DNA of 64,000 nucleotides from Amphiscolops sp. MND2022 (taxonomy: Eukaryota), in assembly GCA_964187785.1 (NCBI GenBank), contig OZ076409.1:64420001-64484000 (forward strand), in the 5' to 3' direction. The position numbers were made by a program, and so were the translations under genes. This document shows, piece by piece, positions 21,373 to 49,251 of the stretch. Below the pieces are notes generated by a model. The model ran no database searches and had not been told where the DNA came from. It worked only from the letters and a program-made list of their open reading frames with translations. Positions within the stretch are counted from its first letter, which is position 1, and each line of letters begins with the position of its first letter.

Positions 21373-21456
21373 CGGTAATATCCATGATTCTTTGATGTAT
21401 CATCGATTAATAAATTTATTAATCGATGATACATCAAAGAATCATGGATATTACCG
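21373..21456. repeat. Perfect 84-bp spacerless palindrome
   Basis: CGGTAATATCCATGATTCTTTGATGTATCATCGATTAATAAA|TTTATTAATCGATGATACATCAAAGAATCATGGATATTACCG. Confidence 0.95.
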
Positions 21457-22594: not shown

Positions 22595-23230
22595 TGCCAA
22601 AAAGTGCAGAAATGGTACCACAGTTAACTACTGGTCATAACGAAGTATATATAATTCACAATAGTTGTAAACACAAAGTTAACATTTGTGGGCAATCTCT
22701 AATCACTGTATTACCAGAAGTATTTTCTAATTCCGGAAAAAGGCGACAAAAGCGGGCGGAAGTCCAATCTTCTATCTGGAAACAATTCCAGAGCTTCATC
22801 ACCTAAGGACTTGGAGCCGAAAAAGAAATTAACTGATCTAGCCGCAAATGAAAAGGAGGCAGAATTGGATGTTATAACAGTCGATGTGGAAATTACGCCG
22901 GATCTAGAAACAGCAATGACGTCATCACAAGTCACCTCAGAAGAAAAAGTAAACGACGAGGACCAGAAAGAAGTTTTCAACATTTTGGACGATTTACAAA
23001 ATGCTCTGGAACCAAGCCGATCGGTTACACCCAATGATGTAAGTAAGTCGCAATTTTGAAATGTTCAGTTTTGGACGAATGAAAATTTTTACGGTCTTTT
23101 TCTTTCACTCAACAGTGGCAGGAACTCGTAACACCAGTGAGGCGTCGTCAGATACAACTACCTGCTCAAAATGTTATCAAAAGCCTGAAACCAGAAAAAC
23201 ATGAAGTTGTAGCTTTTATTATTCAGTCTC
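22595..23230 (+). CDS. Exons of a plus-strand gene, unknown acidic/low-complexity protein (partial)
   Basis: Exons 22595-22644 (tttttcag/GAA|gtatat), 22718-23038 (ttaccag/GAT|gtaagt) and one starting 23116 (ctttcactcaacag); phases join as PKSAEMVPQLTTGHNE|KYFLIPEKGDKSG...EPSRSVTPND|WQELVTPVRRRQIQLP. Start and end not resolved. Confidence 0.55.
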
Positions 23231-23277
23231 TGAGTGTAGTGAAAAAAATCTTTTTAAAAAATTTTTTGTGGAAAATT

Positions 23278-23768
23278 AATACGAAGCAATCATTAACGGC
23301 TTCAAAGGTTTCCCTTTTGAGATCTTCATGCTCTGACCAGACACCCATCTGTCATCATCGAGCTGATGAAAGTCATCAATTTCGCCAAAAGAGGCGAAGA
23401 TGCAGACTCTAGAAATGATCTCTAGAAGTATGATCTTGACCTTCAACTATTATTTTTTCATCAATTGCGAAGCAGCGTCATCAAAACAAATCTTACAGTG
23501 AGTGCCTGAATGTTGAAAATGATAGTTTGATAGGAATTACAGGCTGTTTTTTAAAAGTACAAAAAGTACATGAAGTAAAGGACATTGAAAAACAATTAAT
23601 CACAAGGAGTGTAGACGGGCCGTTAAAAGCATACGTTATTGCCAAACCATCAGGATAAAAGGTCAACCACCATTGATGTCTCGTAGTGTCTGCAGTGTCA
23701 CGTTGAGATCGAACGCTTACATTCGACATTCCAAACGTCTGAGCTTAAACACAATCAACTTAGAGCAG
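23278..23768. repeat. Partial first unit of the ~592-bp satellite, separated from the array by the Gypsy insertion
   Basis: Colinear with array units from AATACGAAGCAATCAT to CAACTTAGAGCAG; sequence resumes at 49252 (GCAG ATAGCGCTT). Confidence 0.95.
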
Positions 23769-24051
23769 TGTACTGACCTACATTAATAACCAATAGTATT
23801 TAGATGTTTATAGAATGTTCTAGAATGTACATTTATTTAAAATTGAATGACTGTAAAACTCTACTCCTTCAGAGAGAGAAAACTAATATTCAGTATTTAG
23901 TCGACTTCCTTTCTTCTTTCTTTCAGACCTCCAAGCTTTATTAGAGTTAGCTAGCTAGCATCGATCTAAGTAGTCTTGTCTTAATACTTAGACCTGTACC
24001 ATATAGATACAAGACCACTAAATAAAATATACAAATCTTTAAAGCAGCACA
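23769..24051 (+). repeat. Gypsy 5' LTR
   Basis: TGTACTGACC...AAAGCAGCACA; 9 substitutions and no indels versus 48969-49251 by manual alignment. Confidence 0.95.
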
Positions 24052-24054
24052 ATT

Positions 24055-24072
24055 TGGTGCGACTTGTACAAA
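24055..24072 (+). promoter_or_regulatory. Putative primer-binding site (tRNA not assigned)
   Basis: TGGTGCGACTTG... starts 3 nt after the LTR end; TGG is complementary to tRNA CCA. Confidence 0.65.
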
Positions 24073-24385
24073 TTCTCTTTTTCCCTGAATGATTTCTCTT
24101 CTCTCATCAATACAAAAACTACCACTCCTCTTCTTTGAAATTCTTTTCGATTGCAGTGATATTTTTTTTAGATTTTCTGGAAAATATAGTCTGTACATTT
24201 CTGAATTTCTTCTGAAAACATTTCTGAAAAAATACATTATCGTTAGACAAAAAACTTCCCCATCTGAAGTATAACAAAATTTCTCCAATGCCGGTTTATC
24301 ACGTTTTCCTATAAACGTCGACACGGTTCTTCTTCTGTTCTCTTGTTTGCCGGTTTATCACGTTTTCTAACACGTTGACACGGTA

Positions 24386-24570
24386 CATTTTCAGACTGAT
24401 TTATCCACAGTGACACAGTTCTGCTCTTCTTTTCAGACTGATTTATCCACAGTGACACAGTTCTGCTCTTCTTTTCAGACTGATTTATCCACAGTGACAC
24501 AGTTCTGCTCTTCTTTCAGACTTATTTATCCACCGTGACACAGTTCTATTCTCCATACTGATTTATCACA
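24386..24570. repeat. 42-bp tandem repeat in the Gypsy 5' leader, ~4 copies
   Basis: Unit TTTTCAGACTGATTTATCCACAGTGACACAGTTCTGCTCTTC; degenerate GCCGGTTTATCACGTTTTC repeats just upstream. Confidence 0.85.
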
Positions 24571-25524
24571 GCTATCCGGAAGCTTGTTGAAACAGTTTTT
24601 CTTCTGTCCGGTTTATCAAACCGTTTATGTGTTTTCTAACACCTTTGACAAGGCAATAAATTCTTCAATCTTGCTATCTTGAACGTCAGGTGGATCCCTG
24701 GTGTAATAGTTGACTGAGTGCATGCCAGGCTCACCTCATCTATAAGCACGTATGTTTCAAGATCAACTTCGTGTTGGCAGAAAACCTGGATTTTCTACTC
24801 TTACGTTTCGGATCCATTTTCTAATAAAATCTCAAAGAAATCTACATTCAGAATTAGACTCTGAAAATCATAAAACGAAACCAAGTCTTCCGCTACTTCA
24901 TTCTCAACATTCTCCTGTCAACAACAACTCCAATCTTCCCAATATTTTTAACAATTCACAAACCTTTTATTTAACAAAACTACGCATGTAATTTTAACAC
25001 AACTCTTTTGCCCTAAAATCTAAAAAAGGGATGCAAATAAAACAGACACTGTAAAGGTAGTTTTATACTTTCAGCCACCCGCAATTCCTATTCCCTCCCG
25101 TAAGACTTAAACAACCAGACTTAGCTTTCAGCTTCATAATCTGATTTTAAGACTGACTAAACACCTTAGCTAAGTCATTAAGGAGAATCTAGAAGACACC
25201 GAACTACTTTCGAATCTTCGAAATTCTCAGGAAGTAAAAGTAAAAGTTCCACTCCCTTAGTCTTAAAACACACAACCCACTTAAAATTAAAACCCCTTAG
25301 CTCTTCCGGACGTGTCAATAGCCTTATGTTAGACCCCTTAGTTGAAGTCCAGCTCTAAAATACAACTCTCACTGGACGTGTCAGTGACGTTATGTCAGAC
25401 ACTTTAATCCAGACTAAAATCATAAAGTGATTCTGTTAACAATCCTTGAGGTTGAATACAGATTCCTTTGCATCCGCTTCTTTCTTCTCGATTCTTAATA
25501 ATAAAACCTCACACGATAAAATAC

Positions 25525-27590
25525 ATGAACTCAAACACACATAATCGATCCTTGAATAATTGAACTCTTTTTACATCCCCAATATCTGTTTATACACATA
25601 TAATTCCTCATATAACCAACCCTATTTATAACCCTACAATTGTAGACTTTGAGAGATTAATTCCGCAATACGAACAATATTTTTTCGATCTTTTGAATCA
25701 ACAACAAATTTACCCAAGATCACGAACTTGAAAACGACTTCAAATAAAGACGTCCCTCATTACTACATTTTTGCTTTTCAACTCTTCTTAAACACTTCTA
25801 CAATTTTATTTTAGAATATCGTAATTACAATCCTCAGTAAGAGTAACAACAACTCTCAATATTAAACTTAGACAACATACCATGTGGGAAAAAGTTACCA
25901 CAATATTCCTTATCACCACATATACATTTTGCGTTCTCTCCCTATTTTGCATCCTCTTGGAAAAATTACTTACATCAAAAAATAATCTCTAACATGAAAT
26001 CTTCAAAATCTTCCCCTTCACCTTTTGAGATACCTAACATTAAAAACACAAAAGTAATAAAAACAGAAACAAAACCATTTCTACACAACATTGTTTATAA
26101 CTATACATAACCTCTTTCATTTGAAAATGAAGCCTACAGTCTTGAAACAATTCTTTTTATTAGAGAACATCTGGATACATATCTCTTCTATATTAGACAT
26201 AGATCTACAACTGTTTCTACAGAATATCCATCTTTTCAAATTACTTGCCCTCAATAAGAAACTTCTTCAACCCAAACATATAGAAGAACAATTAACCCAA
26301 TTAATCTCCAAGTCCATATTAAAGACGTTTACCATGCTTTCTTAATCCAAGTGAAAGAATTCAATCTAGCGCTCGAAAATCCAAAATATAGCCCAAATGC
26401 ACTTCAAGAATTTGAACGATATATACACAATTTCGAAGTAGAAGATATAGAAAGAATAGTTATAACTCAAGATAATCTTCATCATTGGCTACAAACAGAT
26501 ATAATACGGATACAATGTTTCTTATTTCATTATGTCAAAGTTATAACATTGAACGAACAATCAATACCTCAGATTAAACTAATATCTTTATTCCTTAGAA
26601 AATTTTTAAGATTCAAATATCAATTACAATGGTCAGAACAGGATCAAGCTGCTTTCACAGTACTCACAACTCATTTTATAGCTGATGAATGTCTACCATT
26701 CATCATAAATAAAAAGAATGAACACCCTTATTTTTTCAAACCAGATAAAATAACAAAACAAACCATTGATTTTACATCCTTTGATCCTCGTGTAATTACA
26801 AAATACAATCTTATTGATGACAATAGACCTTATCGTTATGAACAAAATATTCAAGAACAACAAAGTCTATTTACTACCAATGAAAACTACAATGAAAACG
26901 ATAACAATAATGAAGATTACACTCTTGAAAATCAAAATGAAAATCGCAATAAAACTCTTGTACATCATATAAATGAAAACAATACTAGTGAATATACCAC
27001 CCCGAATCTACAACTTCAGCACAAGATGCATCACAAACTGGGACATCAACAAACAACCACTTTATTAGAGTTCCAACTAGGGTTGTTAGTCCAAGACCAA
27101 ATACATATAACCCACAATCATACTCAGATACATCTCCACGACGTATCATTACTTTCAACTTTCCTTCTAGTTCAGATGATGAGATACAAGATGAAACTCA
27201 AAATATACCCTCATTCCGTAATACTTCTGTTGATGTTTCGTCACCTACAAGAACTATTCTCGATACTACACAAAATACAAACACTACACAAAATATATCT
27301 CCATCTATGTACGATCCTCCATCACTCCCTTCTACATTTAAATATCCAAATAAAACAATTCGATCTGAAGACAATAATAACAAACAAACCTCCAGCCGAT
27401 ATTATGACCCATTCAATTATTCCTTTTATCCACAATCTAATACAAATATTCAAGCGAATAATAATCAAAATACTTCTCAACCTAACAATAATCCTAATTT
27501 GCTAACATATCACTCATAAACACACACCCGCTATCAACAAATTCCACACAAACAAATTCTTCTTCACAAAATCAAAGGATACCATATTCT
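25525..27590 (+). pseudogene. Long unexplained coding region upstream of the capsid domain (N-terminal Gag extension or separate ORF)
   Basis: Includes the 384-aa ORF 26351-27505 with helical-looking sequence (ALQEFERYIHNFEVEDIERIV...QIKLISLFLRKFLRFKYQLQW) followed by N/Q/P/S/T-rich low complexity; frameshifted; start approximate. Confidence 0.55.
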
Positions 27591-27594
27591 AACA

Positions 27595-29082
27595 TTGTAC
27601 ACTCTTCTCGAAGACGATTCCAAAATCCTCCACTTTCGTATTTATCAACCGATCCCAAATCAAATAAATCAACATACGACTTACAATCCCACTCAATTTT
27701 CACCAACTGTAAACATGGCACAATCTGTTATTCCTCCACCTCAGCATATACCAATACAACAAGATACATTCATAAATACTTCAGCTTCAATACCAGAACC
27801 TATGAAATCTTTCGATGGTTTAGACCACTCTTACACCCCAGAAGAATATCTACAACAAGTTGAAGCAAGATTAACCTTTGCCATAGGTGAAGAACCTCAA
27901 AATAAACCTGTAAAGTACAGATCATGGCATAATAGACGGACGGTTTATATACAATGTTCTTTAATAGGAACAGCCCTTGATTGGTACACTAACCTCCAAT
28001 AATCATATGAACAACAATGGAATTCATTTGTACAATTATTTAAAAAACAATTTTTTCTCAAATAACAGCTTATTACGCACAACTAGAAGCTATGTCACTC
28101 ATGAAAAAAGATGATGAAACAGTACGTCATTTCGCTCTCAGAGTACAACAGTTAGTTAAAAAAGGATGATGGTGCAATGAAAATGCAGCCACTATGAACC
28201 CTAAAAATAATGAAATTTTTACAAAAGGATTACCTAAAAAGTTAAAAGATTTTGCACACAAAAGACAAGTTAAACACGTATCAACGTTACTTGAACCATC
28301 AATACCATTTCACACACTTGTTCGACATGTTGACTCTGAAGATATTGCTAACGAAAAAATAAGAACCAATGATCTAGCCTTAGAAATAAACAAAATATCC
28401 ATTGAAAACGACAATAATGACAAGGAATTAGAACCTGATCATATAATGGTTACTCAGCCTGGAGACCCAAATAATAAGAGTAAACAAGCTTACAAGTAAT
28501 ATTGCTCTTATTGTCATAAAAACAATCACGGTGTTTCAAATTGTTATCAAAAACAACGTGACGAAGATTACCAAAATTATAGAAATCCGTGACCAAGAAC
28601 TCCCCAACAATCGTTTGTACAATACTTCCGTCCGTAGTAAACCCAGCAATTCTCAAGATAACCGAACTGAAAACAAAACTGATTTTTCTTCTAGAGATAA
28701 TGACCGTAATAGATATAGCCAACACTACTCCTACCATAGTGATAGATATAGAAATATTGATAGATACCGAAGTAACAGTGGAGACTATTCACAAAACAAC
28801 TATCGATCTAATTCTCGACAAAGATACTACAAAAAATCCCAAAGTCCATACTCATCTAGATCTAGATATGACAACCATTATCAAAGAAAAACTCCATCCA
28901 GATCCCCATATAGATCACCATGCAGAAACTATTCTAATTACAGATATAATTCTCAATCAAGATATAGATCTCGCTCTCAATCACAAGGAAATTCTTTCAG
29001 ACAATATAGTTACCCATATAGACCTCCATCCAAACCAAGAGATTACAGATCACGATCTAGAACACCTTCACAGAACAGATAA
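27595..29082 (+). pseudogene. gag: Gypsy gag (capsid, CCHC zinc knuckle, RS/Y-rich tail), disrupted
   Basis: MKSFDGLDHSYTPEEYL...SLIGTALDWY...ETVRHFALRVQQLV...FTKGLPKKLK; CSYCHKNNHGVSNC (CX2CX4HX4C) at ~28503-28544; stops and frameshifts. Confidence 0.85.
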
Positions 29083-32000
29083 CAAACAAAACAGAATCAA
29101 TCAAGTAAATGTTAAATTTACAAATGACAAAGATAGTACTAAATTTGAAGTTCATACATGTCAAATCACTGAAATTGCAAACACAATTACTCCTTATAGT
29201 TGGTTTTATCCACTATATATACATGCTTTTGAAAGAAAAGACAACATATTACCTTCAAAATTAGAAAATTTATTTCTCTTAGATACTGGAGCTTCTATTT
29301 CAGTTTTAAACCTACCAACATTTCATGTAATTGCAAAGCAATTAAACCTTAATGTTCCAAGGGACATTGAAAATAAACGAGCAAAAACTCTTACAGTTGC
29401 CAACCAGACTGAAGTACCAATAGTACATTATGTTTCGATGACATGCTTTACCGAAGTAAATCATCAAAATCGATCGTTCAATATTGAATTTGCTGTAGCA
29501 AACATTAAATACAATATTCTTGGAGCACCTTTCTTCAAGAAAATAATTCAAAATATAGACTTTCAACAAAACATTATGACTTATAAAGAACAACATCCAA
29601 AACTTCCAACAAAAACACATTTTTTGACATTCGCAGAAAAAGATTACCCATATATTTCATACATTTATACCATCAATTGTAAAGAACCAATTCACTTTAA
29701 ACCCATGCAGGAAAGACTATACATTTCCCGATCAAAAGTTATCTCAACTTTCACTTTGAACTAGAAAATAATACTGAATTCTACCCATCAATTTCATATA
29801 CATACTTCTTACAAAAATTTAAAGATATTTTTCATTTCTTAGACATGATCATAAATGGAAAAAAAAGTCTCATGCTCAACAGTAATTCAAAATTTCACAT
29901 CTCATCCAGCTACACTACCACGAGGAATTATTGGATACATAGACATCCCTATCATTCAAACAACACCTCCTTATTATAGAGTTCAAGACGTAAACTCACT
30001 CATTCAAATTCATTGAAAAACTACATATAAATCTCAAACCGTATATACCTTACTACACGACGACGTGGAATTCCAATGGACACCTGAACTAGAAAAAAAA
30101 ATCCAAGATGTTAAAAGTTCAATGACAGCAGACACCGAATTAGCCATACCCAATACCAAACATCCATTTTTCATAACAGTCGTTGCTTCCTTAGTTGGCT
30201 TAAGCGCAGTCCTATTCCAAATGAAGGAAGAAAATAAAATGAAAATTATTTCTTATAATTCTCAAATCCTCAACACCCAAGAACCAAAACTTTCAACATT
30301 AGACCGAGAACTTCTTGCAAGAGTCTATGCATTACAAATATACGAATTTCTCATTATTGGATCTCCTCAACCAATATACATCTTTACAGATCATAAACAT
30401 TTATTACAGTTTTGCCAAAAAGGGAAACCTTAGCCCAAGATTTTATTGAGCACAAATGCAACTCACAAAGTTTTAAAAACTCAAAATCATTCACACCCCT
30501 GGAAAAAACTTAAATGTAGCAGATATGCTTTCAAGAACCTTTACCAAAGAACAACTTCAAATACATCAATTACGACATGAACAATGGCCACCTCAAATAA
30601 ATTTCTCTATTATGAAAGACGATCAACTCAAACCTGTACATTAATTAGTGAAACATGAAGAAATCAAATACAATCAAAAAAACATTTGCCAACGAATTCT
30701 CGCTGACTATGGAGAAGATCAATTTTCCATTCCCATAAACAACAAAGGAGAAGATATTCATAAAAAAACTTTAGATTCATTTTCCTTTCAATCCATTGTT
30801 CCATTTGAATCTAAATACAATAGACCCAGAAAGAATAAGGCAAAATCACTTCTACAACAATCAACTATCCTTGATGATACTGATATTCTTAGTGATGAAG
30901 ATGAACCAAATCAACCTCAAGATATAAAAGATCAGAACACAAATACATTAGCAGAACAAACCCTTGCACTACAATATCCCACTAAAAGTTCCATTTTTTG
31001 ATCCATCCTTCTTTAAGTATAACAAATTATTTCATTATTTCTTCCTCCCAGATGATACCCCAGTAACAATTGAAACTATAAAATCACAACAAAAACACAA
31101 TCCCGTTCTACAAAAAGTTTATCATTGGTTACAAAGTGACGAAAAACCTTTACAAATAGATATAACAAAAGCAAGTAACACTCTCCTATCAGTTTACTAC
31201 AAACTCTTCCACCAATTGTACATAATTCATGAAACAAAAATCATCCATATATATTATTCTAATACACATGATTCAAACCCAAGACAAAATGACAAAATAT
31301 GTCTATCATTTAAAATCTTCCATGCAGCTTTTAACAAACTCCATGCACATGGACACTCAGGAATTAAAATCTCCATAAAAGCTTTCAATCATTTTTATTT
31401 TATACTATTTTTAGATAATTGGATGTCGATATTCATTCATGATTGCATTGAATGTCAACAAAACAAACATATTAACTAAAACATTCAAACTGCAACAATA
31501 CAAACATTTTCAGAAAATGCTTCATGATTCAACTATCGAATATCAATGGATGCAAAAGGCCCAATAAATCCACAATCTAATCAAAACTCATATATTCATG
31601 TGATAGTAGATGCTTTTAGCCACTTTGTAGTAACAGTACCTGTTAAACAAAACAATGCCCAAAACGCTGTCAACTCTTTACAACATCATTGGATTACTAA
31701 ATTTGGACCCCCGTGTATTTAGTTACAGATCGTGGTTCAGAATATATTAATTCTGAACTTGCAAACCTTTGTACTACATAGGGAATTAGACATTCACCAA
31801 GAACACCTTACGCACCACGGACAAATGGTTTAGTAGAAAATCAAAATAAAAATCTTGGAACCCATCTTCGATTTTTCTCACATAACACACCAGAAAACTG
31901 GTCTACCCAAGTCCATAAGTACGCTTATGCACATAATTCACAACCACTCTCTGAATTAAATCTTTCGCCATACGAAAAAGTATTTCACACTATACCAAGA

Positions 32001-32282
32001 ATCCCCATCAACTTTGAACTCAATCTCCAACGAGACACTTATAAAAACTGTACATCTCAATTTTGTCAGAATCTACCACTTCACAAACATTATGACAAAT
32101 CAAACTTAAACCCCTTCTTCCATAAAATCTTGTCAAAACCAGTTCCACAATGGATTCTCGCTACAGAAACGGCGATGATACAAATTTACCACACAGTATA
32201 TGAAAATACAAAAAGAAAAATTATTAATTCATTTGCCAATTTCAATAAAACATAAAATATTCCAAGACCCTTAGACATCGGT
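29083..32282 (+). pseudogene. pol: Gypsy pol, 5' part: aspartic protease, RT core deleted, RNase H, integrase
   Basis: FLLDTGASISVL and YNILGAPF (protease); FQWTPELE...PFFITVVASLVGLSAVLFQ...LDRELLA...IFTDHK (RNase H); HAHGHSG...CIECQQNK (HHCC); ISMDAKGP, VIVDAFSHF, VTDRGSEY, TNGLVE (DDE core). Confidence 0.92.
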
Positions 32283-33110
32283 TGTAACAACTGCTTGGTC
32301 CCTTCAGTTGACCAAACTTTGCGCCGCCCTGAATTCGGTGCTCGGCACTGCGGATCGTTACCGAACACTGCTTGCTTCTTAGATTAAAAGGACTGTATCT
32401 TGACTTAGTAGGATCCAATGATCCCGAATTGTACTTCTTCCTTGTTTCTTAACACGTCCAACTCTCTACAAGTTGAGAGTAACTAACTTAGTCGCCATAA
32501 GTCTTTGGCGAAAAGTCGAAAAGAGGTGAGGAAATGAATTGAGAATTGAAATGGTCCTAAGACCCAACTTGAATACAGCTTTTCAATCCATTTGTGCCTC
32601 TCTAGTTATGGTATACATATCGTTTACAAATCTTCAGTAAATATAAGTCAAAATATGAAGTATAAAAAATGACATTTAGGTGAATTATTAAAGTTAATGG
32701 CGATGTAAACAAACCATAGTGTGGGTATAGCATGTTGGTTAGGTGGGCTCTAAAGCATGTTTACACAATGTATATATCATTATTTCAACAGAGTTATATT
32801 CTCTAATGTGGTCATATAAGTGAATAACAAAGTTTACATTTTTGGTTCAAGGACCTTGAACACCACACATGTGAGGGGTATTGGGGGTTATAGTGGATGA
32901 TTGACCTTGAAACTTCGCCGGTGAATTTGTGTTAGGTACTTGCGTATGTGTGCCAAGTTTCATGTCTCTAGGGTTAGTAGTTGTCGAGAACATCCAATTT
33001 GGGGGGGGTTCCATTTTTGTGATGATTGGATTTTCTTCAAATTTTCATCTAAGTTTTTTTAAAGTTTAAGTTCTTGTTTCTCAACCAACATGTTCCAAAT
33101 CAACTTTCTT
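32283..33110 (-). repeat. BEL 3' LTR, missing ~22 bp at its inner end
   Basis: Aligns with 39649-40477 at roughly 93-94% by eye; homology stops at CAACTTTCTT. Confidence 0.9.
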
Positions 33111-36100
33111 CGTTCCAAATTGTTGACTTTCAGCTGTCTCACGTCACCTTTGTTCCATTTATTACGCACATTCCATTGCGGCAGATATTCTTTAGTCCGT
33201 CGAGTCCAAATCATATCTGAATAAGCTTGCGACACTCGAAATACTTGTCTCAAATCTGTGTAACGTTGAGCGACTGGTAGGAATGGTGTGGCTAAATTAG
33301 CTCTTCCCATTAGGAAAGGTCAAAGCTTCCAGGTCATCAGGATCGTCACTAACACTAGTCAGTGGTCTAGCGTTCAACGTCTGTTCTACTAAACACATAG
33401 TTGTTATAAGGACGTCGTCCGTCAAGGATCGCCCATCCAATACAGCTATCATTGCCTTTTTACAATTTCGGACCAATCGTTTCCAGATTCCTCCAAAATG
33501 AGGAGCTCCAAGAGGGTTGAATTTCCACTTGATTTCTTTTTGAACTAAAGCGTTCTCAATATCTGACTGATTCCATGCATTTATACAATCTCTCATTTCT
33601 TTAGCTCCACCCACGAAGTTTTTCCCGTTATCGCTCAAAATTGTAGCAGGTTTACCTCTACGGGGAATAAACCGTGTGATAGCAGTTAAGCTGGTCTCTG
33701 CTTCCAAAGATGAAACAACTTCAATGTGTACTGCACTAGTCGTCAAACATGTGAAGAGACAACACCATCTCTTCATGGTCTTACGCATATACTTCACTTC
33801 AGAAGGACCAAAATAGTCAATTCCAGTGTTGGTGAAGGGGAATACTCGTTCTTGCAATCTCTCTCACGGTAAATCAGCCATAAATGGTTGAGACACTCCA
33901 GCTCGTTGCTTTCTACATTCAACACATTTCGCTTTGACGTTCGTCAAAGCGTTTCGCAATCCAATAATCCAGTATTCTTGCCTCACAACACTTCTGACGT
34001 AATCTGTGCCTTCATGAAAATTCGCTCGATGAGCATCTTCAAATAACTTGATGACTACATAGTGCTTTGCTGACAAAAAGACCGGGTGTTTGACCTCATA
34101 ACTTGATCTTGAATGCTGCAGTCGGCCATGTAGTCGCAGCAATCCTTTTTCATCCAGAAACGGCGATAATTTATTCAATCGATGTGATGCCGGCAACGGC
34201 TGCCCTTTAGAGATCTTCTCGTAGGCATCATGAAAACTTTCTTTCTGAAAACGTTTTAAAATTGCCAGCTTTGCCGCATTGAGTTCTTCAACTGTCAGAA
34301 TTTCTCCAGAATTCCTTTTCCTCCATCTTAGGCAGTATGAGAGCACTCGAATTATTTTCTTGAAAGAGCCAAATCTTTCCCATTCGAATGCGCGTTTTAT
34401 TACAGCAGCTTCCAGGACTGGTTCTTGCTATTCTTGAATGCTAATTGCAATTTTTCAGGCGCCTTAGGCCAGACGTCCTCTGTCTCGGTGAGCCACGCCG
34501 GCCCTGTGAGCCACTCACTCTCGTTCAGGGCTTCAACTGTCATTCGTCGAGTTCCAATGTCAACAGGATTCATTTTTCCTTCAACATGCCGCCATTGATC
34601 GACAGTTGAATTTTCGAGAATTTCAGCTACGCGGTTTGCCACAAAGACCGGTTGCTTGTTGTTACTTGCGTGAAGCCATTGTAGGACCGTAGTTGAATCT
34701 GTCCAATGTACAATTTGGTCTACTTCAATATCATGTTCTTCCAAAATAAGCTCCTGCAGTCTTACTCCAAAAACTGCTGCCTGCATCTCCAACTTAGCCA
34801 CTGTCATGTTTCGTATTGGAGCTACTCTGCATTCACTTCGCCATTTTCTTGCTTTCTCAAACAAGCAACCATACACATTGCTTCCAACGAAGCGTCTGAG
34901 AAGATATCTAGATCAACTTTGCTCACTCCAGACTCCAAGTATGTTCTTTTAAGGACCATTTGATTCACTTGAATCATCTCTGATGCCCATTTCGCGAATG
35001 CATGTCGATTTTCTTCTATCAGTTCTTCATCCCACGACTGTCCGTTCTCCTTCCATATAGATTTTAGTAGCAGTCGCATTCTGATAGTAAAAAGAGACAC
35101 TATTCCCAGAGGGTCGGACACAGCTGAAACGTGGGATAACACAGCTCTCTGCGTTATCTTCACCGGTATCTCCTTCTGCATGCCTCTGCAGACTTCCAGA
35201 TTGTCTGCGTCAACGTTCCATTGCAGTCCCAAGATTAATGGAGAAGTCGGTTCAGCTTCAAAAGTTTTACTAGAGGACGGTGACTTGTCTGCTTTGTCAA
35301 TAGACGTCATAGTCTGTTCGCAGTTGCTAATCCATTTTGTTAAGTGAAAGCCTCTCTTTGCCAACATTGCTCGCAACAGTTTGTAGATTCCAATAGCCTG
35401 CTCAGCGCTGGGAACAGACTCGACAAAGTCATCCATATAGAAGTTTCGCATTATCAGTTTAGTAATTTGTGGGGACTCCTGTGCGTTATCTCTTGCAACT
35501 TGTTGCAGAGCATAATTGGCGCAAGTTGGCGAACTTTTGGCTCCGAAGAGATGTCTTCCATACTCATACTTGTTAACGGGTTCATTTGGATTGTCTCTCT
35601 ATTGAAATGTCAACACTTCACAATCTTCCGGCGGTACTTTCACTTGGAGGAACATCGCCTCAATGTCAGCAGTGATGGCGATCTTTTGTTCTCTAAACCT
35701 GGAGATTATTCCAATCAGATTCTGTAGTAGGTCCGGCCCTGTCAAGAGGTTATCGCTCAAGGAAATTCCACGTAATTCGGATGCTGCGTTGCACACTCGC
35801 CTCAATTTTCCTGGTTTGTTTGGGTTTTCTACTGGGTGATGTGGAACATACCACTGTCTTTCCAATATTGTAGCTTCTAATTCTTCTTGCTTCAGGATTC
35901 TGACGAATCCCTTTTCAACATCTACTTTGATAGAGTCTTGATAGAGTTTCTTTAACTCTGGTTTCTTTTCAAGTCTTTACTAAAACGATTTCATTTGGCT
36001 TAATGCAGAAGAGCAATTGTTTGGCAAGAAGGGGTCATTTCTTTTCCAGAGAAGACCAACTTCATATCTTTCACCATCAAACTTTGTGGTTTGTTCCAGC

Positions 36101-39100
36101 ATCTGCAACGCCTTCTCATCTTCCTTGGACCTTCCAGACACATCGCAGCGAGACGCATATGATTCTATGTCCCACCACAGTTTTATCTGTTCTGCCAGTG
36201 CATCATCTTCAGAGGCTGTTACGCAAGATGCAGTCATCTGCACAGCTTTTTTCTGTGGAAGTGGTCCACAGAGAGTCCATCCAAGTTTCGTTTTCACTGC
36301 CCAAGGCTCACCATTCGCGCAGCTTTTATATTCTTCAGGCCGATGTATAGGGTAGCAGTTTTGTCCCAATATCATTTTTACATCTTTGAGTTTCAATGAT
36401 TCTTCGCTTAGGACCGACAAATGGGGATAGGCAAGTTTGAGCTCCTGATAGTTGTAGATCTTTGTTCCGGCGTCTATGTTTGGATGAGTGTAAACTGTCA
36501 TGCGGTGTGTGTCGGTCATTGCCTTGCCACGAATTCCCACAGTGAATCGTTCACATTTCACATCATTTGTCCCATGTAGTCCAGCCACACTCAGGTCAAT
36601 TTCTTCCCCGTGAACGTTTAACTTGTCAGCTAATCTCTTGCCTATGAACGATAGGCTCGCTCCAGAGTCACACAACGCCAAGGTCGATTCTTGTTTTTTT
36701 CCAATTTGGATGATGACCGGTATAACTGGCAGAATCCCACTGCTCTTCAGTGAGCAAAATGCAGAGTTCGCCTCCGCCTTCTTTTGTGGGTCTTCTACTC
36801 CACTTTCTTTCGGCCGTTCGTTTGACTCGCGGCGTAGCAATCGATGATGCCGCCTGCTACAGCCATTGACTCCACACGCTTTGTAAGTGCAATCTTTCAC
36901 CACATGTTTTCCAGCCAAGTAACAAAAGCAGAGTTTCAATTCAATGGCTTTTTCATATCGTGCTTGACAGGTCATCTTCAGAAACTTCTCGCATTTCCAC
37001 AAGGGAAGTTTACCATCTTTCAATGGACAATCATAGCCAGTCTTCTTGTCGGCACTGTCGTCAGCAAAGGTTGAGATTGTAGAGCTCTTTGGCTTGTCTT
37101 TAACTGTCCATTTCGATCTGTCTGCGTTGGGGTTGCCTGTCATGAGAACATCTTCCTGCACCGCTGCTACCTCTTGCAACCATAATCTGAACGCTTGCAG
37201 CCCCATGTAGTAATTAGCATTTTGTCTCGCGTGCGTCAACCTTTTCGTCTTCATGTTCATTGGCAATTTTCTGGTCGCACTACTCAGGACGCTTTCTGAC
37301 TGCAAGTCGCCAACATAGTTCATCTGCGTCAGAACTTGTACACAACTTGAAACTATTCTCGAGTTTTTGACCAATGCTACAGAGTCGTACGCTTTCACTG
37401 GTGGAAAGGTGTATTTTCGTCTCAATTGTGCGTTAACTACCACTTGTGGTCTTCCAAAGTGCGCGACCAAGGTATTCCAAGCAAAATCATACATGTCTCC
37501 AGTGTAGCCTAGTCCAGCTATCACTTCTTTCGCTTTCCCAGTGACCAGCGTTTTGAGATGATTCATCTTCAAGCTAGCATCGATGTTTGCAGTGTGCACG
37601 GTCTAGAGGAACAACCCTGACCACTCAGGCCATTCCAATGGGTCGCCTGAGAATTCTGCCAGCTTCAGCTTCGGCAAGCTGGCTGGTAGACTCACTGCTT
37701 CATTTCTTGTTGTCGCGAACTGACTCTGTATGGGGGCAGAGTACTTAGCTGAGGGTGCCCACTGGTGGTGGCAATGTGCCACTTCTCGTTTGGTTACTTA
37801 ACATTGGTTGGTTTGGAGGTTCGAAGTTCCCAAACTGCACATGCTGTTGAAATGTCTTACTCATTTGCATCTTCGCTGATGCAGCGTTCGCGCGAATTGA
37901 CTGGCCGACGTGCCATCCTGTTCCATGGTCGGCTGCGCTGTTTTCGCAGCCAGGTGGGGCATTTGGGTTGTGTGTGACAAAGGGTCAGGTTGTGGTTTGA
38001 TAGGTTCGCTGGCCAGTGCGATTCTGGATACCTCTTCTCCAAACTTCGTTGTTTTTTCGTCACATCCAATTTCATCAAGCCAAGAAGGTACTTTTTTGAA
38101 CGGATCGCTCTGGATGGGTATTGGCGAGATTCTTCGCAAACTTGTGCTTTCTCTGCTTCCCTCCGCCCGAGCGATTTCCATTTCCTTCTCTGCGATTCGT
38201 TTAGCTCTTGCCTTCTCCTCTTAGAGTTTAGCAATTTCGAGTTCTTCTGCGAGTTTATCCATTTCCTCGTGTTTCTTTCGGATTTATGCTTGACGTTTCT
38301 TTGCAGCTAGTTGTTCGTCGATTTCGTCTTGTTTCTTCATTGCTTCCAGTTCTAGGAGCATCACTCGTTTTGTAGTAGTTGACTTTGAAATAACTGATGT
38401 TCTGTTGCCCCTCGAATGTGTCTTGCTTGCACATTGATATCTTTCCCCGGGTAACGAATTCACCTCATTAATACAACAATTAACAAACGAATTGGGGCCA
38501 ACAGTACCTTGTGTCTCTTCTTCATTCGTGTTATTCTGAAGAGAAGTGTCGCGGGACTTTAGTTGTTGCTCTTGCCAATTCACCCTGGCACGGGCCATGA
38601 TTCCCTCCATACGATGCAACTAACTGTAGATTGAAGTATCTCCACTGTGTTTCAATAACTCATCCATCTCGGCCACAATTTCATCTCTCCTTTTGAGGGT
38701 TTCTTCCATTGTTTCTTCAAATGCTTTGTAATCCTCTGAGTTGCAAAGAGTATCCCAATTTTTATTGATTTCATCTTCGTTTTTCTGAAGTATTTCATCA
38801 CATTTCTCTTTGGAGTTTTGAAGTTGTAGGAACTCCTTCAACTGTCCTTCATTCTTTGGCTCCTCATCATTGTGATCATCTGACCAATGTTTTTATGTCG
38901 TGTTTCCAAGGAGTCTAATTCATTCCGATATCTGCAGAAACGGTCGCCTTTCTATCTGACCATTCTGGCTGATACTTGGCTTTCAAGAGTGCTGTGTTCG
39001 CCCCGACGAGTCTGAGACTCTTCCATCTGAGCAGTATGTCTTGTCGGTTCGGTAGAAGGTCTGCGAGTTTCTCTTTCGTCGTGTCTGCTTTGCGTAGCTC

Positions 39101-39232
39101 AGCATGTATTTCATCCATTTTTGTCTCGAAGTTTTGAATTGCTCTCATTTTGCTCTCCCATTGTGGCTTGTCGATAGAACTCTTCAAATAGTTGTCAATG
39201 CTTTTGTAATCAATTCTCTTAGGTTCAGCCAT
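33111..39232 (-). pseudogene. BEL/Pao gag-pol polyprotein, disrupted
   Basis: SLPKLKLAEFSGDPLEWPEW (DUF1759-type gag), Cys/His knuckles, ALCDSGAS protease, WYVPHHPV..NKPGKLR, ADIEAMFLQV, NFYMDD (RT), IFSDAS and WTDS (Pao RNase H), H..FH...CVEC, GIDYFGP, SDNG, PHFGGIW (integrase). Confidence 0.95.
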
Positions 39233-39630
39233 TCTTGAAGTAGATCAAAACCCCAGAGTACACTAACTAACCACAGGAGTCCAAATTCTGCTGTGAATAC
39301 AATTCCCAACAAGCTGATGAAGTAGCCCAAAACCACAGAGTACACCTTATACCCAAGAGCTCTAGTAATACCACTGCGAATACAATCTCCCAGAGCCTGC
39401 AGAAGTAGCCCAAGCCCCAGAGTACACAATTCACCCAGTAGAGCCCTGATGAGACCACTTTGCAGCACAGACAGTTTTGCATAGATCACCACCAGTCGTC
39501 GTTCACTGTACACGTTCACTTGATCGCACAGTGCTGTTCTGGCTGTGTAGCAATCAGATGATCATCCAGTTGTCCGCCCAATTGATTATGTGCGCCCCAA
39601 AACTGATGATGTCCGCCCAATTGATGATGT

Positions 39631-39648
39631 CCGGGTTGGCGGACCGAA
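39631..39648 (-). promoter_or_regulatory. Putative BEL primer-binding site, tRNA-Tyr-like with one mismatch
   Basis: Minus strand TTCGGTCCGCCAACCCGG directly after the 5' LTR; compare the TGGTCC...CCGG Tyr-type PBS. Followed by short GATGATGTCCGCCCAA repeats at ~39555-39632. Confidence 0.45.
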
Positions 39649-40499
39649 TGTAACGGCTGCTTGGTCCCTTCAGTTGACCAAACTTTACGCCGCCCTGAAA
39701 TCGGTGCTCGGCACTGCGGATTGTTACCGAACACTGCTTGCTTCTTAGATAAAAAGGACTGTATCTTGACTGAGTAGGATCCCGAGTGATCCCGAATTGC
39801 ACTTCTTCCTTGTCTCTTAACACGTCCAACTCTCCACAAGTTGAGAGTAACTATTTTAGTCGCCCTAAGTCTTTGGCGAAAAGTCGAAAAGAAGTGAAGA
39901 AATGAATTGAGAATTGAATTGGTCCTAAGACCCAACTTAAATACAGCTTTCCAATCAATTTGTGCCTCTCTAGTTATGGTATACATATTGTTTACATTTC
40001 TACAGTAAATTTATGTCAAAATATGAAGTATAAATAAATGACGTTCAAGTGAATTATTAAAGTTATTGGCTATGTAAACAAACCATAGTGTGGGTATAGC
40101 ATGTTGGTTAGGTGGGCTCTAAAGCATGTTTACACAATGTAAATATCATTAATTTCAACAGAGTTACATTCAAATGTGGTCGTATAGGTGAATAACAAAG
40201 CTTACGTTTTTGGTTCAATGACCTTGAACACCACACATGTGAGGGGTAAAGGGGGTTATAGTGGATGAATGACCTTGAAATTTCGCCGACGTGTTTGTGT
40301 TAGGTAATTGCGTATGTGAGCCAAGTTTCATGTCTCTAGGATTAGCAGTTGTCGAGAAAATCCATTTGGGGGGGGTTTCCATTTTTGTGATGATTGGATT
40401 TTCTTCAAATTTTCATCTATGTTTTTCAGAGTTTAAGTTCTTGTTTCTCAACCAACATGTTCCAAATCAACTTTCTTTGCCTGCGGATGACTGGCGACA
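39649..40499 (-). repeat. BEL 5' LTR (851 bp)
   Basis: TG...CA termini (TGTAAC...GCGACA on plus), followed by TSD. Confidence 0.92.
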
Positions 40500-41097
40500 T
40501 CGGTACCTTTGTATTAAAAAAAATTTCCTCCATGTTCGTTTTTCAGATAAACTCAAGCCACTCAGAATTGGACCATTTAAAATCATTAATAAAATTTCTG
40601 ACATTACATATGAAATTGTTAATCAAGATGGTTATACTTCTCATATACATAGATACCATTTAGTTCCTTACTACCCAAAAGAACCAATCATTTTTCCTTT
40701 CATACAAAAATATAACCCACATTCTACTGATAACAATACCGATAATAATAACTCAAATACAAACGACTCAATAAATCCTTTTGTGTCTTTTTCAGACGAG
40801 GAACAATTAGTTGAGGACGAAATTACAAGTTCCAATAAAGAAACGGAAACACCGTCCACAATTGACTTCCAACCGGAATCATTTAGTCAATACTCTTCAT
40901 TTCCGTATCAACAAAATAAACAACAAATCAGTTACACCAACCCAGAAAACCAATCTATTATTCACGACTATGACAATTATATTAACCCCCGAAGACACAC
41001 CCATGACAGATACGATTTCCGCCTACAACCACGAAACGACTATCGACTTTTCCTTGGTGGAAAGGACATGATTTCATTTTCTCAAAAATCCTGCTGA
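40500..41097 (+). pseudogene. Gypsy integrase C-terminus (GPY/F region and tail)
   Basis: KLKPLRIGPFKIINKISDITYEIV...HIHRYHLVPYY; tail RYDFRLQPR. Confidence 0.9.
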
Positions 41098-41249
41098 ATG
41101 AAAATTGAATGAAAAAGCTAGAAACAAATAAAGATAAATAGTAACCTGAAAAAGGAACACTAAAACAAAAATAGCATAAAAATTTGAGAGTATTAGTGAA
41201 ACTTATGATTAAAAAGAGAACTGCAAATTACAAAAATACTTCAAGATTG

Positions 41250-42643
41250 ATAGCCAAAGACCTTCACCTTCATCAGTTAGAAACAAATCATCAACCAGTT
41301 CAACCCATTCATTCCAAACACTACCTGAATATACAGCAAATCTAAATTCAGATACAGACATACTGGATTCCTCACCCTCAAACCCTAGTCCATGCGCTCC
41401 ATATTCTCCCGATAGAATAACAGCAACGCCTAATAGTACTCCAATACTCCAAACTCAAACAACAACAACAACAACAATTCAATCACAAAATTTGCCATTT
41501 TTAGACACAAATTCACCTTCAAGTGACTCGTGTGATGAATCACTTACCTCTAATGTGCAAGATACTTCAAGTATCATAAATAGACCCCCTCTCCCACCTA
41601 TTCCTTCTACCCGTACTTTGCATATCCCTGATCTTGATTCAGTTCTTCAATACATTAGCTCCTGTTCACACAAAATACCAACCGCAACAAAAAAAATTAG
41701 AAAAACTCCTATACCAACATTACCAAAGAAAACTCCTATACCATCAACAAGTCAAACTCCAATAAAACTATACCAGAACATACAACTAATTCACCATCTG
41801 ATATAAGTTCATTTACATTCTCTCAATTATATCCAAAATTAGGACGTTTAAAATCAAGCACTACCTGTTCTTTAACAGACTTATACCATAAAGATAAAGA
41901 CTCTGATTCGACAGCTAGTAGCCGAGTACCAGAACACAGTTATAACCTTAGATCTCAACCACGAAGACTTTCTCAAGAATTATCATCTTTAACTAGTTCT
42001 AGTACAAACTCAAGATTAATCAGACAACAAGCACAACCCAGAATAGACACTCCTTCTCTTTCCTCATCTCATCCCACAATACCATCTTCCTTATCATTAC
42101 CATTTCAAGTCACATCAGGATTTGAATCAGCATCTCTTATTTCGGAAGACCCTCACACTGTATTAGATGGCGCCGCAAACTTTTCACGAGCTTATTCACC
42201 TAGTTCAATACTATCTGATTCATCAATACAATTACCTGTATTTTTTTAGAAGAATATTCGAGACCTCCTACACCAAACCCACACGAATATCCCATCCGTG
42301 TTAATTCAACCATTATTCGTAGTCTTAACGAAGATCCTCGATACACAGTACTCCCTACTAGGTTTATAAATAATAGTTTCTCTCAAACTCAAGAAAACAA
42401 AGAGAACTAAGAAGATTACAAGAAACTCAATTAATATTAAAATTTGAAGTCGGAGTTACATTCAACTCTTTAAACCCATGCATTTTCTCTTTCAACAAGA
42501 GTAGCACATAAAACAACTCCTTCACCATTCATAGTCACTTCAATCTCTTATCTTCGTGACGCAGAATTACCAGAAATAAGAACTGGTCAAATGAACTTCT
42601 TTAACCCATATTCAGGACTTAATTATAGAACTATACTTTAACT
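41250..42643 (+). pseudogene. Ser/Thr/Pro-rich decayed coding region between integrase and env-like ORF
   Basis: Low-complexity frames (SPSSDSCDESLTS..RPPLPPIPS; HSYNLRSQPRR at ~41935-41967) then a more globular segment (LKFEVGVTFNSLNPCIFSFN...NFFNPYSGLNY) running up to the env hydrophobic leader. Confidence 0.45.
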
Positions 42644-45191: not shown

Positions 45192-45654
45192 CAGGAAAAG
45201 ATAATAACCATAAGGAAAGGACAATAACCAAATAAAACAAAATTAAGCTTTGAAAAAGTTCACAAAATCGACAACGAATAACCTCACAAATTTACTTTCA
45301 TTCCACCCAAAAACTCTCACTTAGACAGTTGCTACCTCAATTCAACCTGTGCCACCTCAACTCAACCCGAAACAACTTGGAACTTCACTTGGACTAATTC
45401 TTTGTGAATAACAAAAATCACAGAGGTTTCTATTCCGGGAATAGATATCACTGTGACTGTTGATATTTTGATCCGACCCAACAATATTCCAAAATTGTAA
45501 GTACAATTTGAACTTCCATTGTATAAAACTCTAAATTTTATAAACTCTCTAAACAAAAGAACAAGAAATACTTCCTCAATAATTTAAACTTAACCTTATC
45601 ATGTGTTAAAAATAATTATTTTTTTAGCGCTACAAATTCACGCAAGTTAAAATA

Positions 45655-46960
45655 ATGGAATCCTTGCCTGACATTGTTGTAGTTAACTCTAGTCCCCCTG
45701 AATTGCTTGCATCCCCTCCGAATATAACCATTCAACAAAATGTTAACGAAGATAATAATTAATCTTCACAAATTCAAGAACCCATGGAAACCATTGCAGT
45801 TGAACAAATTGAAAATATGAACGCGAAATCTCAGAAACGAAAATACCCAGACTTAACCGCCGATAATCCTATTATGGAATCTGGCGCTTGTCCTCCTTTC
45901 ATAAACCATCAAAACAAGATGAAGATCGAGATTGTGATTTAATTCCCATTTTATCTTCAAGACAACTCACATTCCATTTTCATTTAACTTCTTTATGTAT
46001 GATTCCAACCAAATACAAACTCATCATCAGAGAATATACAAACAATTATCATACTTCAATTGCCTCAAAATTAATTACCCCATATGATTGGTGGTTAAAT
46101 AACAAAGTGAAAATTTTCTCTTTTCAATATATTTTCCTCAGACCATCTCAGAACTGAAGAGAATGATGCTAATTTCTTGCCATACCAAATAAAGAAAGCT
46201 CATCATGTTACGTACCACAAATTTCTCAAATACAAAGAACCTGAAAATTATCTTTTCTTCAATTCGAAATATACATCGCCTTTCGCTTTGAACTCAGACT
46301 ACCTAATAGATCACACTAAAATAAAAGGAAAACTAAGAAATTATGACCCATTGAAACAAAGTTTTGTTTTCCTTCCAGATGATAATCCAAAAAGACCAAA
46401 GATAGTACCACAAGAAAATCTCATTCTGAATGATGATTCGTTATTACAAGAAGATATACCCAAAGTTATATCAGACCCTCTTCCTCCAATTCAACCCATT
46501 GCCTCCCAAACTCTTGGAGACTGTGAAAATCTTATTATTACGCTATAGCAAAAAAGGGATATTCCAATAATGAATTATTATTCATTATTTCTCATCTCAT
46601 TTCCATCCTTACAAAAAGAAATATAAAAGAAAACAAACAAAACAAATCAAGAACCTTCAAAGAAACCAACAAATGATATTCCCCAACCGGAAAGTTTTCC
46701 TTCTACCGAAAAAATACAAAAATATCAACAATTAATGGACATTTTAAAACCATATCATAACCCAAAAAAGGATATACTTACTACTATTACTGATATAGTG
46801 AAGCCACTCGAACAAGCCCGAGACCTATTGCAAAATATGACATTTGATACGACAAGAGTCAGCCAGTCAGCTTCGTAGGTACGCACATCCTTAGATGAAA
46901 TCAACTACATATTTGAAAAACTACAACAATCTCAACTGGTAATTATAGATAACAGCTTTG
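45655..46960 (+). pseudogene. Accessory ORF downstream of env, unknown function, disrupted
   Basis: ATG at 45655 (MESLPDIVVVNSSPPELLASPP...), continuing through ORF pieces 45888-46157 and 46177-46548 (YDWWLNNKVKIFSFQY; KIKGKLRNYDPLKQSFVFLPD) to a coiled-coil-like end; end approximate. Confidence 0.55.
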
Positions 46961-47281
46961 ATAATTTTCACACTTGACTCTTAATTCTTTAAAAACCTGT
47001 CAAAATCAACTAGTACTCATTTAATTATTCTTGCTGAGCATATTTATAGTCTATATTAAACAATAAAATACACCTTTAATTTAAAATATGTCAAAAAATT
47101 TTAACTATGGACTTAAAAATTTTTAACAAAATGCTTCAAATGCTCCTCCTTTCAATGAACCGATTTTAACAAACAAGACCTCAAATGAACGATATTTAAA
47201 TACTCTTCAAAAGACCTCCAAATTACACTAACTTGATTCTTAAAATTAAAAAGATATAACACAAAAAAATACATCTGAAAA

Positions 47282-48150
47282 ATGTCAACAATAAAAATCC
47301 AATTTAGAAGGAAATTTAAATGTAAACAAACTAATCTATTTCAGGTGAATATCTTCAAACTTCTTTCTTCGCCCCTTCCACTTCCTTCCAATCGCAGCCT
47401 CAACATCTTTCCACATCAAGAAATTTCCGAAAAAAAAATCCATTTCAACTCTTCCATCACAATGACTTCAAAAACTTCTGTAGAATTCCCGAATGCTTCA
47501 ACTTGCCTTCGATCTCTCATTCTGAAAAAACATAAATCAACGTTATATACACAGATGACACAAGAGAAAAAGGCAGATCCACAACTAACAAAAATGATTC
47601 TCTTCAATATATTCCAAATATTCCAAATAAATAAAATAAATTTTCAGCAATACCTTATATTGCATAATCATCCCGATACCTTCATTCACAAATGTGATGC
47701 TACAACTCAAACGGATTATACTACTATCCGACCAAAATCTTTTTCCAGAAACCTATCTAATAAAACACGTACTCTATTAGGAAAAGAAAAATTAGTATCC
47801 TACTGGCCATCGGATGACAATGATTCTACCGATAATGAACTTCAAAAAGACTCGCTGAAGCGATACTCGACGAAAATTCTCCACACAAAACATAAACTTC
47901 GCATTCTGAGTTTCCACAACAAAGATCACAAAAGACACAGCACCTGCATACAGCCCACCATCATCTGGAGCCATTGATTGCCCTTCAACACCGAGGAGAT
48001 TGCAGTTGCAGCAGAAAATCCAACATCATTCCGCACTGGAGACCCCAAATTGCCGCTTTCACCCTCTCTCAAACTGGTCCCATCATCGAAAAAGCGAATT
48101 CAGAAGTCAAGAAGACCCATGTGATGATAATACGAAGAATAATATAATTT
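47282..48150 (+). pseudogene. Second possible accessory ORF before the 3' LTR
   Basis: 231-aa ORF 47282-47977 with protein-like continuation after one stop (LPFNTEEIAVAAENPTSFRTGDPKLP). Confidence 0.4.
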
Positions 48151-48968
48151 AAAACAAGAAGGATGACAAAAAACATTGTACTTGATTAAACTTTAAACTT
48201 TTCTTCAAAATATAATTCCAATAGGCTTTTTATTTTTTCATTTGTGAAGTATAAAACAACCGCCCATATTTATTTGCCCCATTTATTAAATTTATTCGCC
48301 CAAACCGATATTTATTTGCCCATTTTTAACGAATATTTCCTTATTATTTTTCGGTGCTTTTCGATCCCAAAAGAATTCAATCATATAGTAACAAACTCTT
48401 TTCAAAATTTCAACAAAATTAACTCAAAAATTGATCAAGCACATTGTTCAATTTCAATTGGAATAATGAGAAGCCCACTTTCTCAAAGTTTTCAACAAAC
48501 CCGCCAAAGTTAAAAACAACCTGAAATCTTTTCAGACAGTTTTCATACTTCAAACGATGAAATATGTCAACAAAATTTCTCAATGACTCTTTGACCTTTA
48601 GCTCATATGATGTTTTGCTCACGTTTGTTAAATGCGAAGTTAATTCAGAACCTCAACAGAGGCATAGATTAGAGCCGCTACCAGTTCAAAAACTAGGCCT
48701 GAAAGCATAGTGAAACAGACCACTTTGATGCCTTCGAACTATAGTCGCACATAGGAGGTCTAATAAAGTTGTCACATTTTTGATAGACAACGCGAGATCT
48801 ACCATTGAGTCGAACTTACACCAATGTAAAAGAGATTTATGCCAATCATCCATCAAAAAAAAATTTGAACTAGCGTGTCAGCTAACGCCAAAAACATTTA
48901 CAAAATATTTCCAAATTCATTTTATTCATGTGATGTAAATTTTTTATTCTATTCAAAACCGGGATGGA

Positions 48969-49251
48969 TGTACTGACCTACATTAAAAACCAATACTATT
49001 TAGATGTTTATAGAATGTTCTAGAATGTACATTTATTTAATATTGAATGACTGTAAAACTCTACTCCTTCAGAGAGAGAAAACTAATATTCAGTATTTAG
49101 TCGACTTCCTTTCTTCTTTCTTTCAGACCTCCAAGCTTTATTAGAGTTAGCTGGCTAGCATCGATCTAAGTAGTCTTGTCTTAATACTTAGACCTGTACC
49201 ATCTAGATACAAGACCGCTAACTAAAACATACAACTCTTTAAAGCAGCACA
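48969..49251 (+). repeat. Gypsy 3' LTR
   Basis: 283 bp, preceded by purine-rich AAAACCGGGATGGA (PPT-like, 48955-48968), followed by TSD GCAG. Confidence 0.95.

Follow-up and report, generated by a model that had tools for sequence, protein, structure and literature searches.

Positions 23769 to 49251 of a 64,000-nucleotide stretch of DNA from Amphiscolops sp. MND2022 (GenBank assembly GCA_964187785.1, contig OZ076409.1, positions 64,420,001 to 64,484,000 of the forward strand; the whole stretch is called the window below) hold a large long terminal repeat (LTR) retrotransposon of the Ty3/gypsy type. Beside gag, pol and env it carries stand-alone accessory genes: the open reading frames (ORFs) X, between pol and env, and Z1, behind env, are present, and a third, Z2, is weakly supported. 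We read the locus, with a probability of roughly three in four, as a mutated, non-autonomous copy of a high-copy, env-carrying Ty3/gypsy family that has lost its reverse transcriptase (RT) and in which X and Z1 are genes in their own right. Judged from sequence relatives, the family order runs LTR, leader, small membrane ORF, gag, pol, X, env, (Y), Z1, Z2, LTR. The features of the element, in window coordinates, are the following:

23769-24051, plus strand: 5′ LTR, 283 bp, with TG...CA ends and the GCAG target duplication on its left
24052-25524, plus strand: long non-coding leader, holding a 42-bp tandem repeat at 24388-24547
24055-24066, plus strand: primer-binding-site-like motif (TGG-), 3 nt downstream of the 5′ LTR
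25525-25863, plus strand: U1, a possible broken short ORF of ~110 codons with an ATG at 25525, not supported
25882-25992, plus strand: U2, an intact ORF of 36 aa that has a single hydrophobic segment (hydropathy 2.42)
25994-29082, plus strand: gag, ~1,030 aa, broken by stops and frameshifts, recognised from relatives and its capsid domain
29083-32282, plus strand: pol part 1, broken, start approximate, with protease, connection/RNase H and integrase
32283-40499, minus strand: nested BEL/Pao LTR retrotransposon, foreign to the gypsy element, 8,217 bp, with the duplication TCGGT
40505-41097, plus strand: pol part 2, the integrase SH3/GPY-F region and an acidic tail
41205-42641, plus strand: ORF X, ~490 aa, start approximate, frameshifted in this copy, recognised from homologues and codon score
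42644-45191, plus strand: env-like gene, ~850 aa, broken, with a signal-peptide-like start and a C-terminal hydrophobic segment
45192-45600, plus strand: Y, a possible, weak short ORF with an 11-residue match to the start of P0324
45655-46977, plus strand: ORF Z1, ~440 aa, broken in this copy, recognised from homologues, codon score and a predicted barrel
47282-48150, plus strand: ORF Z2, a probable accessory gene of ~290 codons whose frame path is uncertain, recognised from 4 homologues and codon score
48955-48968, plus strand: purine-rich tract, 11 of 14 purines, adjoining the 3′ LTR
48969-49251, plus strand: 3′ LTR, 283 bp, with GCAG directly after it

The element shows the features expected of Ty3/gypsy: paired TG...CA LTRs with a short duplication, a primer-binding site (PBS) and polypurine tract, and a gag capsid domain. 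Along pol, Pfam matches to a weak protease, connection/RNase H, the integrase zinc finger, its core and SH3 pieces follow the Ty3/gypsy order, and Ty3 is the best solved-structure match both for RNase H and for the integrase of a relative. The RT core is absent near 30000, where ~300-450 bp separate the protease region from the connection/RNase H match and leave no room for it; the first-pass annotation, made from the letters of the window, had likewise found RT missing. Because RT is lost, this copy is non-autonomous. The stretch at 29700-30000, between the protease and the site of the RT loss, has no Pfam match and may resemble a degenerate dUTPase-like piece that the pol of certain gypsy elements contains. 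Subtracting the BEL/Pao insertion (8,217 bp) and one duplication (5 bp) from 25,483 bp leaves exactly 17,261 bp, the figure already given for the element. The usual size of an RT is 1.2-1.6 kb, and adding one back would put the progenitor at ~18.5-19 kb, in keeping with the earlier estimate of ~19 kb.

Between integrase and env (~41250-42640) an accessory gene had been proposed, and homologues of this region tile 41200-42640 as a single frame of up to 493 aa. The C-terminal part of X, used as a query against longer proteins, gave 91 matches among 203 candidates, one of them representing a 488-member cluster; 89 of the 91 long homologues are free of pol and env sequence, and a shared C-terminal motif is the end of 49. 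Residues 1-360 of X are 44% Ser/Thr/Pro and are followed by a conserved ~130-aa C-terminal part, with no membrane segment found by sequence analysis. Substitutions relative to the window (90 homologues) are more conservative than in a neutral simulation, at 0.00 versus −0.64 ± 0.24. By these protein comparisons X is a stand-alone gene common to the family, with signs of protein-level constraint.

Z1 and Z2 were searched together with phmmer, using a single-frame reading of 45655-48144 against 1.84 billion representatives. The 149 matches comprise 142 for Z1 (141 plus P0310, which starts just upstream), 4 for Z2 and 3 for the spacer. Identities of the Z1 homologues lie in bands near 70-85%, 45-50% and 28-40%; P0319 (447 aa) aligns across nearly the whole of Z1 at 27-30%, and many homologues have a common start methionine. 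The Z1 core is covered by 39 of the 149 matches, which form 17 clusters at 60% identity and a tree in which several lineages are supported. When 16 distant representatives are compared, 12 of the 72 core sites are conserved in 12 or more of them, and the variance per site amounts to 19.8 versus 3.7 under even decay; such unevenness is what purifying selection would give, although shared ancestry and bias in the search may contribute to it. The homologues place Z1 as a stand-alone gene common to the family and to many distant sequence lineages, and the accessory gene proposed at 45655-46960 is thereby borne out. A T-rich tract ending in AG at 45617-45628, ~27 nt upstream of the Z1 start codon, is a candidate splice acceptor.

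The coding signal was examined with a codon model that allows frameshifts, using 100 shuffles per region. X scored 35.0 (shuffle maximum 6.5), Z1 30.9 (8.8) and Z2 7.6 (6.2), and no signal was found in the leader, 45192-45654, 46981-47278 or the 3′ untranslated region. There is almost none at 25500-25993, and for U1, which has no Pfam match, the score of 1.0 was equalled in 8 of 100 shuffles.

Two of the 91 X homologues, P0208 and P0281, join X to pol (one) or env (one), and these connections speak for a reading in which X and Z1 prolong pol or env within a long polyprotein, as in the planarian Burro, and owe their separate appearance to mutations. The region before the capsid did prove to be part of Gag, as described below, which also speaks for such extensions. 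However, both proteins are internal deletions, the remaining 89 X matches lack pol and env and the C-terminus is common to 49; many Z1 matches begin at one methionine, and 464 bp lie between the env stop and the start of Z1. We give this reading little chance.

The deletion forms are informative in another respect, since the natural fusions pol-X, X-env and env-Z1 (P0208, P0281 and P0313) keep the order of the window. They weigh against the possibility that this copy alone happens to hold the extra regions, as nested insertions of their own or as host DNA that was captured. One genuine nested insertion, the BEL element, does exist, and the synteny argument is drawn from proteins; but a search within the element found no repeats longer than chance bounding X, Z1, Z2 or the other extra regions, and stops and starts abut neighbouring genes. 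The strand bias of these regions also equals that of gag, pol and env: the plus strand is A-rich and G-poor, with C over G, in all internal gypsy regions, a bias that is gone within BEL and that the first-pass annotation had described for the extra regions. Nested insertion, for which no terminal repeats of the regions' own speak, was accordingly set aside as their origin and has in our judgement very little chance. Scans of viral contigs and metagenome contigs yielded no related loci.

We thus prefer the view that X and Z1 are family genes carried by a decayed copy, and several observations weigh against it. The reverse strand of X scores 46.6 in the codon model, as high as the forward strand, and one of the 16 stretches on which the model was trained was in the wrong frame. 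The substitution test uses mutually related homologues that were picked by similarity, the X homologues are all close relatives (median 76-83% identity), and the substitution shift in the Z1 core is small (−0.44 versus −0.64 ± 0.16). Neither X nor Z1 has a Pfam or PDB-sequence match, and Z2 has no Pfam match. All homologues are proteins without genomic context, which leaves a location in retrotransposons putative for the distant Z1 relatives. The basic KRK motif of Z1, discussed below, is found in 6 matches alone, namely 5 N-terminal fragments of the near lineage and P0445, and the matches of its predicted barrel reflect a common arrangement that would indicate a fold class without a function. 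Finally, env is assigned through two collinear matches to PF24664, neither of which reaches the curated cut-off: one spans profile positions 25-119 (E 0.009), the other 421-507 (E 0.004). With moderate confidence, these profile matches suggest that env is of the gB/class III type; its hydrophobic segments at both ends are moderate, the C-terminal one being split by a frameshift, and a sequence search of solved structures was empty or at chance level.

The one extra region that did not survive as an accessory gene is that before the capsid, annotated at ~25525-27590, of which 25994-27590 encodes the N-terminal half of Gag. A query with 26258-26950 gave 325 near-length matches among 389 candidates, with 55-87% identity among the 120 listed. 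In a search for longer proteins, 86 of 471 candidates matched, 15 of them with the capsid domain PF03732 in the same chain; 43 of the 86 extend from the N-terminal domain to the capsid and 8 from the start to past 28200. Two relatives, P0136 (937 aa) and P0150 (914 aa), map to 25994-28761 and are unbroken from the ORF start near 25994 through the capsid and CCHC knuckle, with PF03732 above its cut-off in both; a separate pre-capsid gene is ruled out by their continuity. Since relatives encode the pre-capsid region and capsid as one frame, Gag is ~1,030 aa long, and on this alignment the stretch from the ATG at 25994 is its N-terminal half. The layout comprises a novel ~290-aa N-terminal domain, an Asn/Thr/Ser-rich linker, the capsid domain, the CCHC knuckle and an Arg/Ser-rich tail. 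For the N-terminal domain the predicted fold is of low confidence (predicted local distance difference test, pLDDT, 32), leads in the ESM Atlas are all under 0.8 and a solved-structure sequence search was empty or at chance level. The Arg/Ser/Tyr-rich tail (28583-29082) shares ~500 nt with another open frame, which runs on into the protease; this is possibly a frameshift region. P0190 is a natural internal-deletion form in which Gag is joined in frame to integrase. The peptide of U2, whose stop lies 1 nt upstream of the gag ATG, also opens P0052 (84%) and P0152 (64%), 2 of the 446 fetched proteins.

For the second region behind env (47282-48150), the proposal of an accessory gene holds in part: the codon score lies above all 100 shuffles, and the homologues are four, three of them close and one diverged (P0435, 51% over 47 aa). 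This count is a lower bound, because the query covered one of the frames of Z2. P0435 aligns to a frame other than the 232-aa open frame at 47279-47977, which is probably not the true frame of Z2 throughout, its substitutions looking neutral (−0.60 versus −0.38, 2 matches). Z2 is probably a real gene. Y agrees at 9 of 11 residues (pairwise E 6e-4) with the beginning of P0324, a protein of a distant lineage, and has no codon signal; we are doubtful that it is a real ORF.

How would such an element work? From established knowledge, it would replicate by the standard Ty3/gypsy route and env would serve cell entry. The extra genes would probably be expressed through sub-genomic RNAs or stop-restart translation, a proposal prompted by stops that come just ahead of the next gene (1 nt from U2 to gag, 2 nt from X to env), and they would most likely serve the element's own cycle. 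Z1 is predicted to have a disordered N-terminus with the KRK motif, an alpha/beta part, an SH3-like barrel and a helical C-terminus. In an AlphaFold model of P0319 (mean pLDDT 55) the small beta-barrel, at ~residues 261-310, has a pLDDT of 83-93; it matches Tudor, KOW, PWWP and chromo-barrel folds equally (Foldseek E 0.08 or worse) and reaches Z ≤ 7.3 by VIA, with a root mean square deviation of 2-3 Å over ~55 residues, tied among many barrels. Z1 gave no match in the ESM Atlas and none at E 0.001 or better in a viral structure library. Because of the KRK motif in the near lineage and the predicted Tudor/KOW-type barrel, our best guess, at somewhat under even odds, is that Z1 may act in the nucleus to regulate transcription of the element or export of its RNA, by analogy with CERV of Cer1. 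X, largely disordered, could perhaps be a phospho-regulated adaptor or an antagonist of host defence, a suggestion we make with less assurance.

A more sober account also deserves serious consideration, although we favour it somewhat less than half: X and Z1 would be real genes, but passengers of a structural or metabolic kind (a part of the virion, or a helper in membrane or RNA-processing functions) that regulate nothing, Z2, Y and U1 would be non-coding, and the element would be a long errantivirus with two added ORFs that does not behave like a complex retrovirus. LTR elements with additional ORFs of mixed function are known (PMC5408684; PMC6431247), SH3-like barrels are common and imply no function, and the evidence for Z2, Y and U1 is thin. 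On the other hand, the codon score of Z2 tops all its shuffles, one Z2 relative reaches 51% over 47 aa, and Z1 has its basic motif. At the opposite end, it is conceivable, though we think it rather unlikely, that the element represents an undescribed clade of 18-19 kb Ty3/gypsy endogenous viruses whose complex-retrovirus programme evolved independently of Retroviridae, in which four to six accessory genes (U2, X, Y, Z1 and Z2) would be made from sub-genomic RNAs and Z1 would be an old, clade-wide nuclear regulator with a Tudor/KOW-like barrel.

The surroundings give some history of this copy. Its two LTRs differ at 9 positions across 283 bp, and the 4-bp duplication GCAG stands on both flanks. 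The same GCAG junction is found unoccupied in two downstream units of a 592-bp satellite, and the element therefore inserted into that satellite. The array (23170-23768 and 49252-59100) has ~17 units with up to 99% identity over 300-nt stretches, and the insertion point lies close to its left edge. Outside the element there are two near-perfect palindromes without spacers, at 5113-5302 (95-nt arms) and 21370-21459 (45-nt arms).

The nested BEL/Pao element holds Pfam domains of a Pao peptidase, RT, DUF1759 and integrase, in long, almost intact reading frames of up to 540 aa (33297-37602, minus strand), between LTRs of ~850 bp. These LTRs (32283-33110 and 39650-40499, the left one without ~25 bases at its inner end) differ at 58 of 825 sites, or 7.0%, more than the 3.2% (9/283) of the gypsy LTRs (Fisher p 0.02). 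The nested element is thus more diverged between its LTRs despite having to be younger, a paradox that gene conversion of the gypsy LTRs or a recombinant BEL could explain.

Published elements offer several partial parallels. The MDG1/412 group has two short ORFs, sORF1 and the transmembrane sORF2, immediately in front of gag (PMC11952523), of 63-107 aa; U2, in contrast, has 36 aa and no glycine at position 2, and an env is present here. We rejected U2 as an sORF2/FAST-like protein, a kind marked by its length, an N-myristoylation motif, a membrane segment and a basic tail: U2 is too short and starts with MW, though it has a membrane segment. CERV of the C. elegans element Cer1 (PMC10309623) is a precedent for an accessory regulator in a Ty3/gypsy element, the ORF3s of bdelloid rotifer LTR elements (PMC5408684) for captured third ORFs and Tor of Oikopleura (PMC4402516) for internal promoters. 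These are single extra genes, mostly of recognisable families, and their comparison with X and Z1 is one of descriptions.

Planarian Burro/GYPSM1 and plant Ogre (PMC6431247) are also of gypsy type, very large and endowed with additional coding capacity, and Burro has env homology. However, Burro has recognisable extra domains and env in one ~4,900-aa polyprotein, whereas here the genes are separate and unnamed, and Ogre is large through long LTRs, unlike the 283-bp LTRs of the present element.

There is a close likeness to the 'ancient errantiviruses' whose env is of HSV/gB type (HSV, herpes simplex virus; PMC13524379), which share the gag-pol-env order, Ty3-like RNase H and integrase, probably a gB/chuvirus-like env, LTRs with a PBS and many copies; gB-type env-carrying gypsy elements are widespread in invertebrates (Chary and Hayashi, PMC13524379). 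The complement of our PBS-like motif had 0 matches among the PBS strings in the errantivirus table of that study. Unlike those viruses, the present element has a ~1.5-kb gene in the pol-env interval, and its sequence continues for 3.8 kb beyond env. LTR-to-LTR spans are ~7.4-12.6 kb in the first of 34 parts of the table, and the word 'accessory' is absent from the main text. The survey set upper limits of 1 kb for the distance from pol to env and of 10 kb overall, and because of these filters it would have missed the present layout. Here env does not follow closely behind pol, ~1.5 kb with ORF X intervening in a broken copy, but the 1-kb limit is a search filter and not a biological definition. 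A paper on an LTR-rich invertebrate genome (PMC9911081) describes no such element in its available portion. In the literature searched, with most subscription journals and Repbase lying outside it, we found no account of this family or its layout, nor any Ty3/gypsy element in which separate, unnamed genes flank env both upstream and downstream. If the layout is true, the largest survey of env-carrying gypsy elements missed a size class through its 10-kb and 1-kb filters. X, Z1 and the Gag N-terminal domain make three nameless protein families within a very high-copy family.

Complex retroviruses bear accessory genes both in the pol-env interval and behind env, and they and the foamy-like endogenous retroviruses of fish are Retroviridae with a class I Env, unlike the Ty3-like element described here. 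The foamy-like fish elements are nevertheless alike in reaching 17 kb by accessory ORFs (PMC6431247). Neither sequence nor fold connected X or Z1 with viral proteins. Accessory genes flanking env on both sides have counted as a hallmark of complex vertebrate retroviruses; if the layout of the present element is true, the same complexity arose in retrotransposon-derived viruses.

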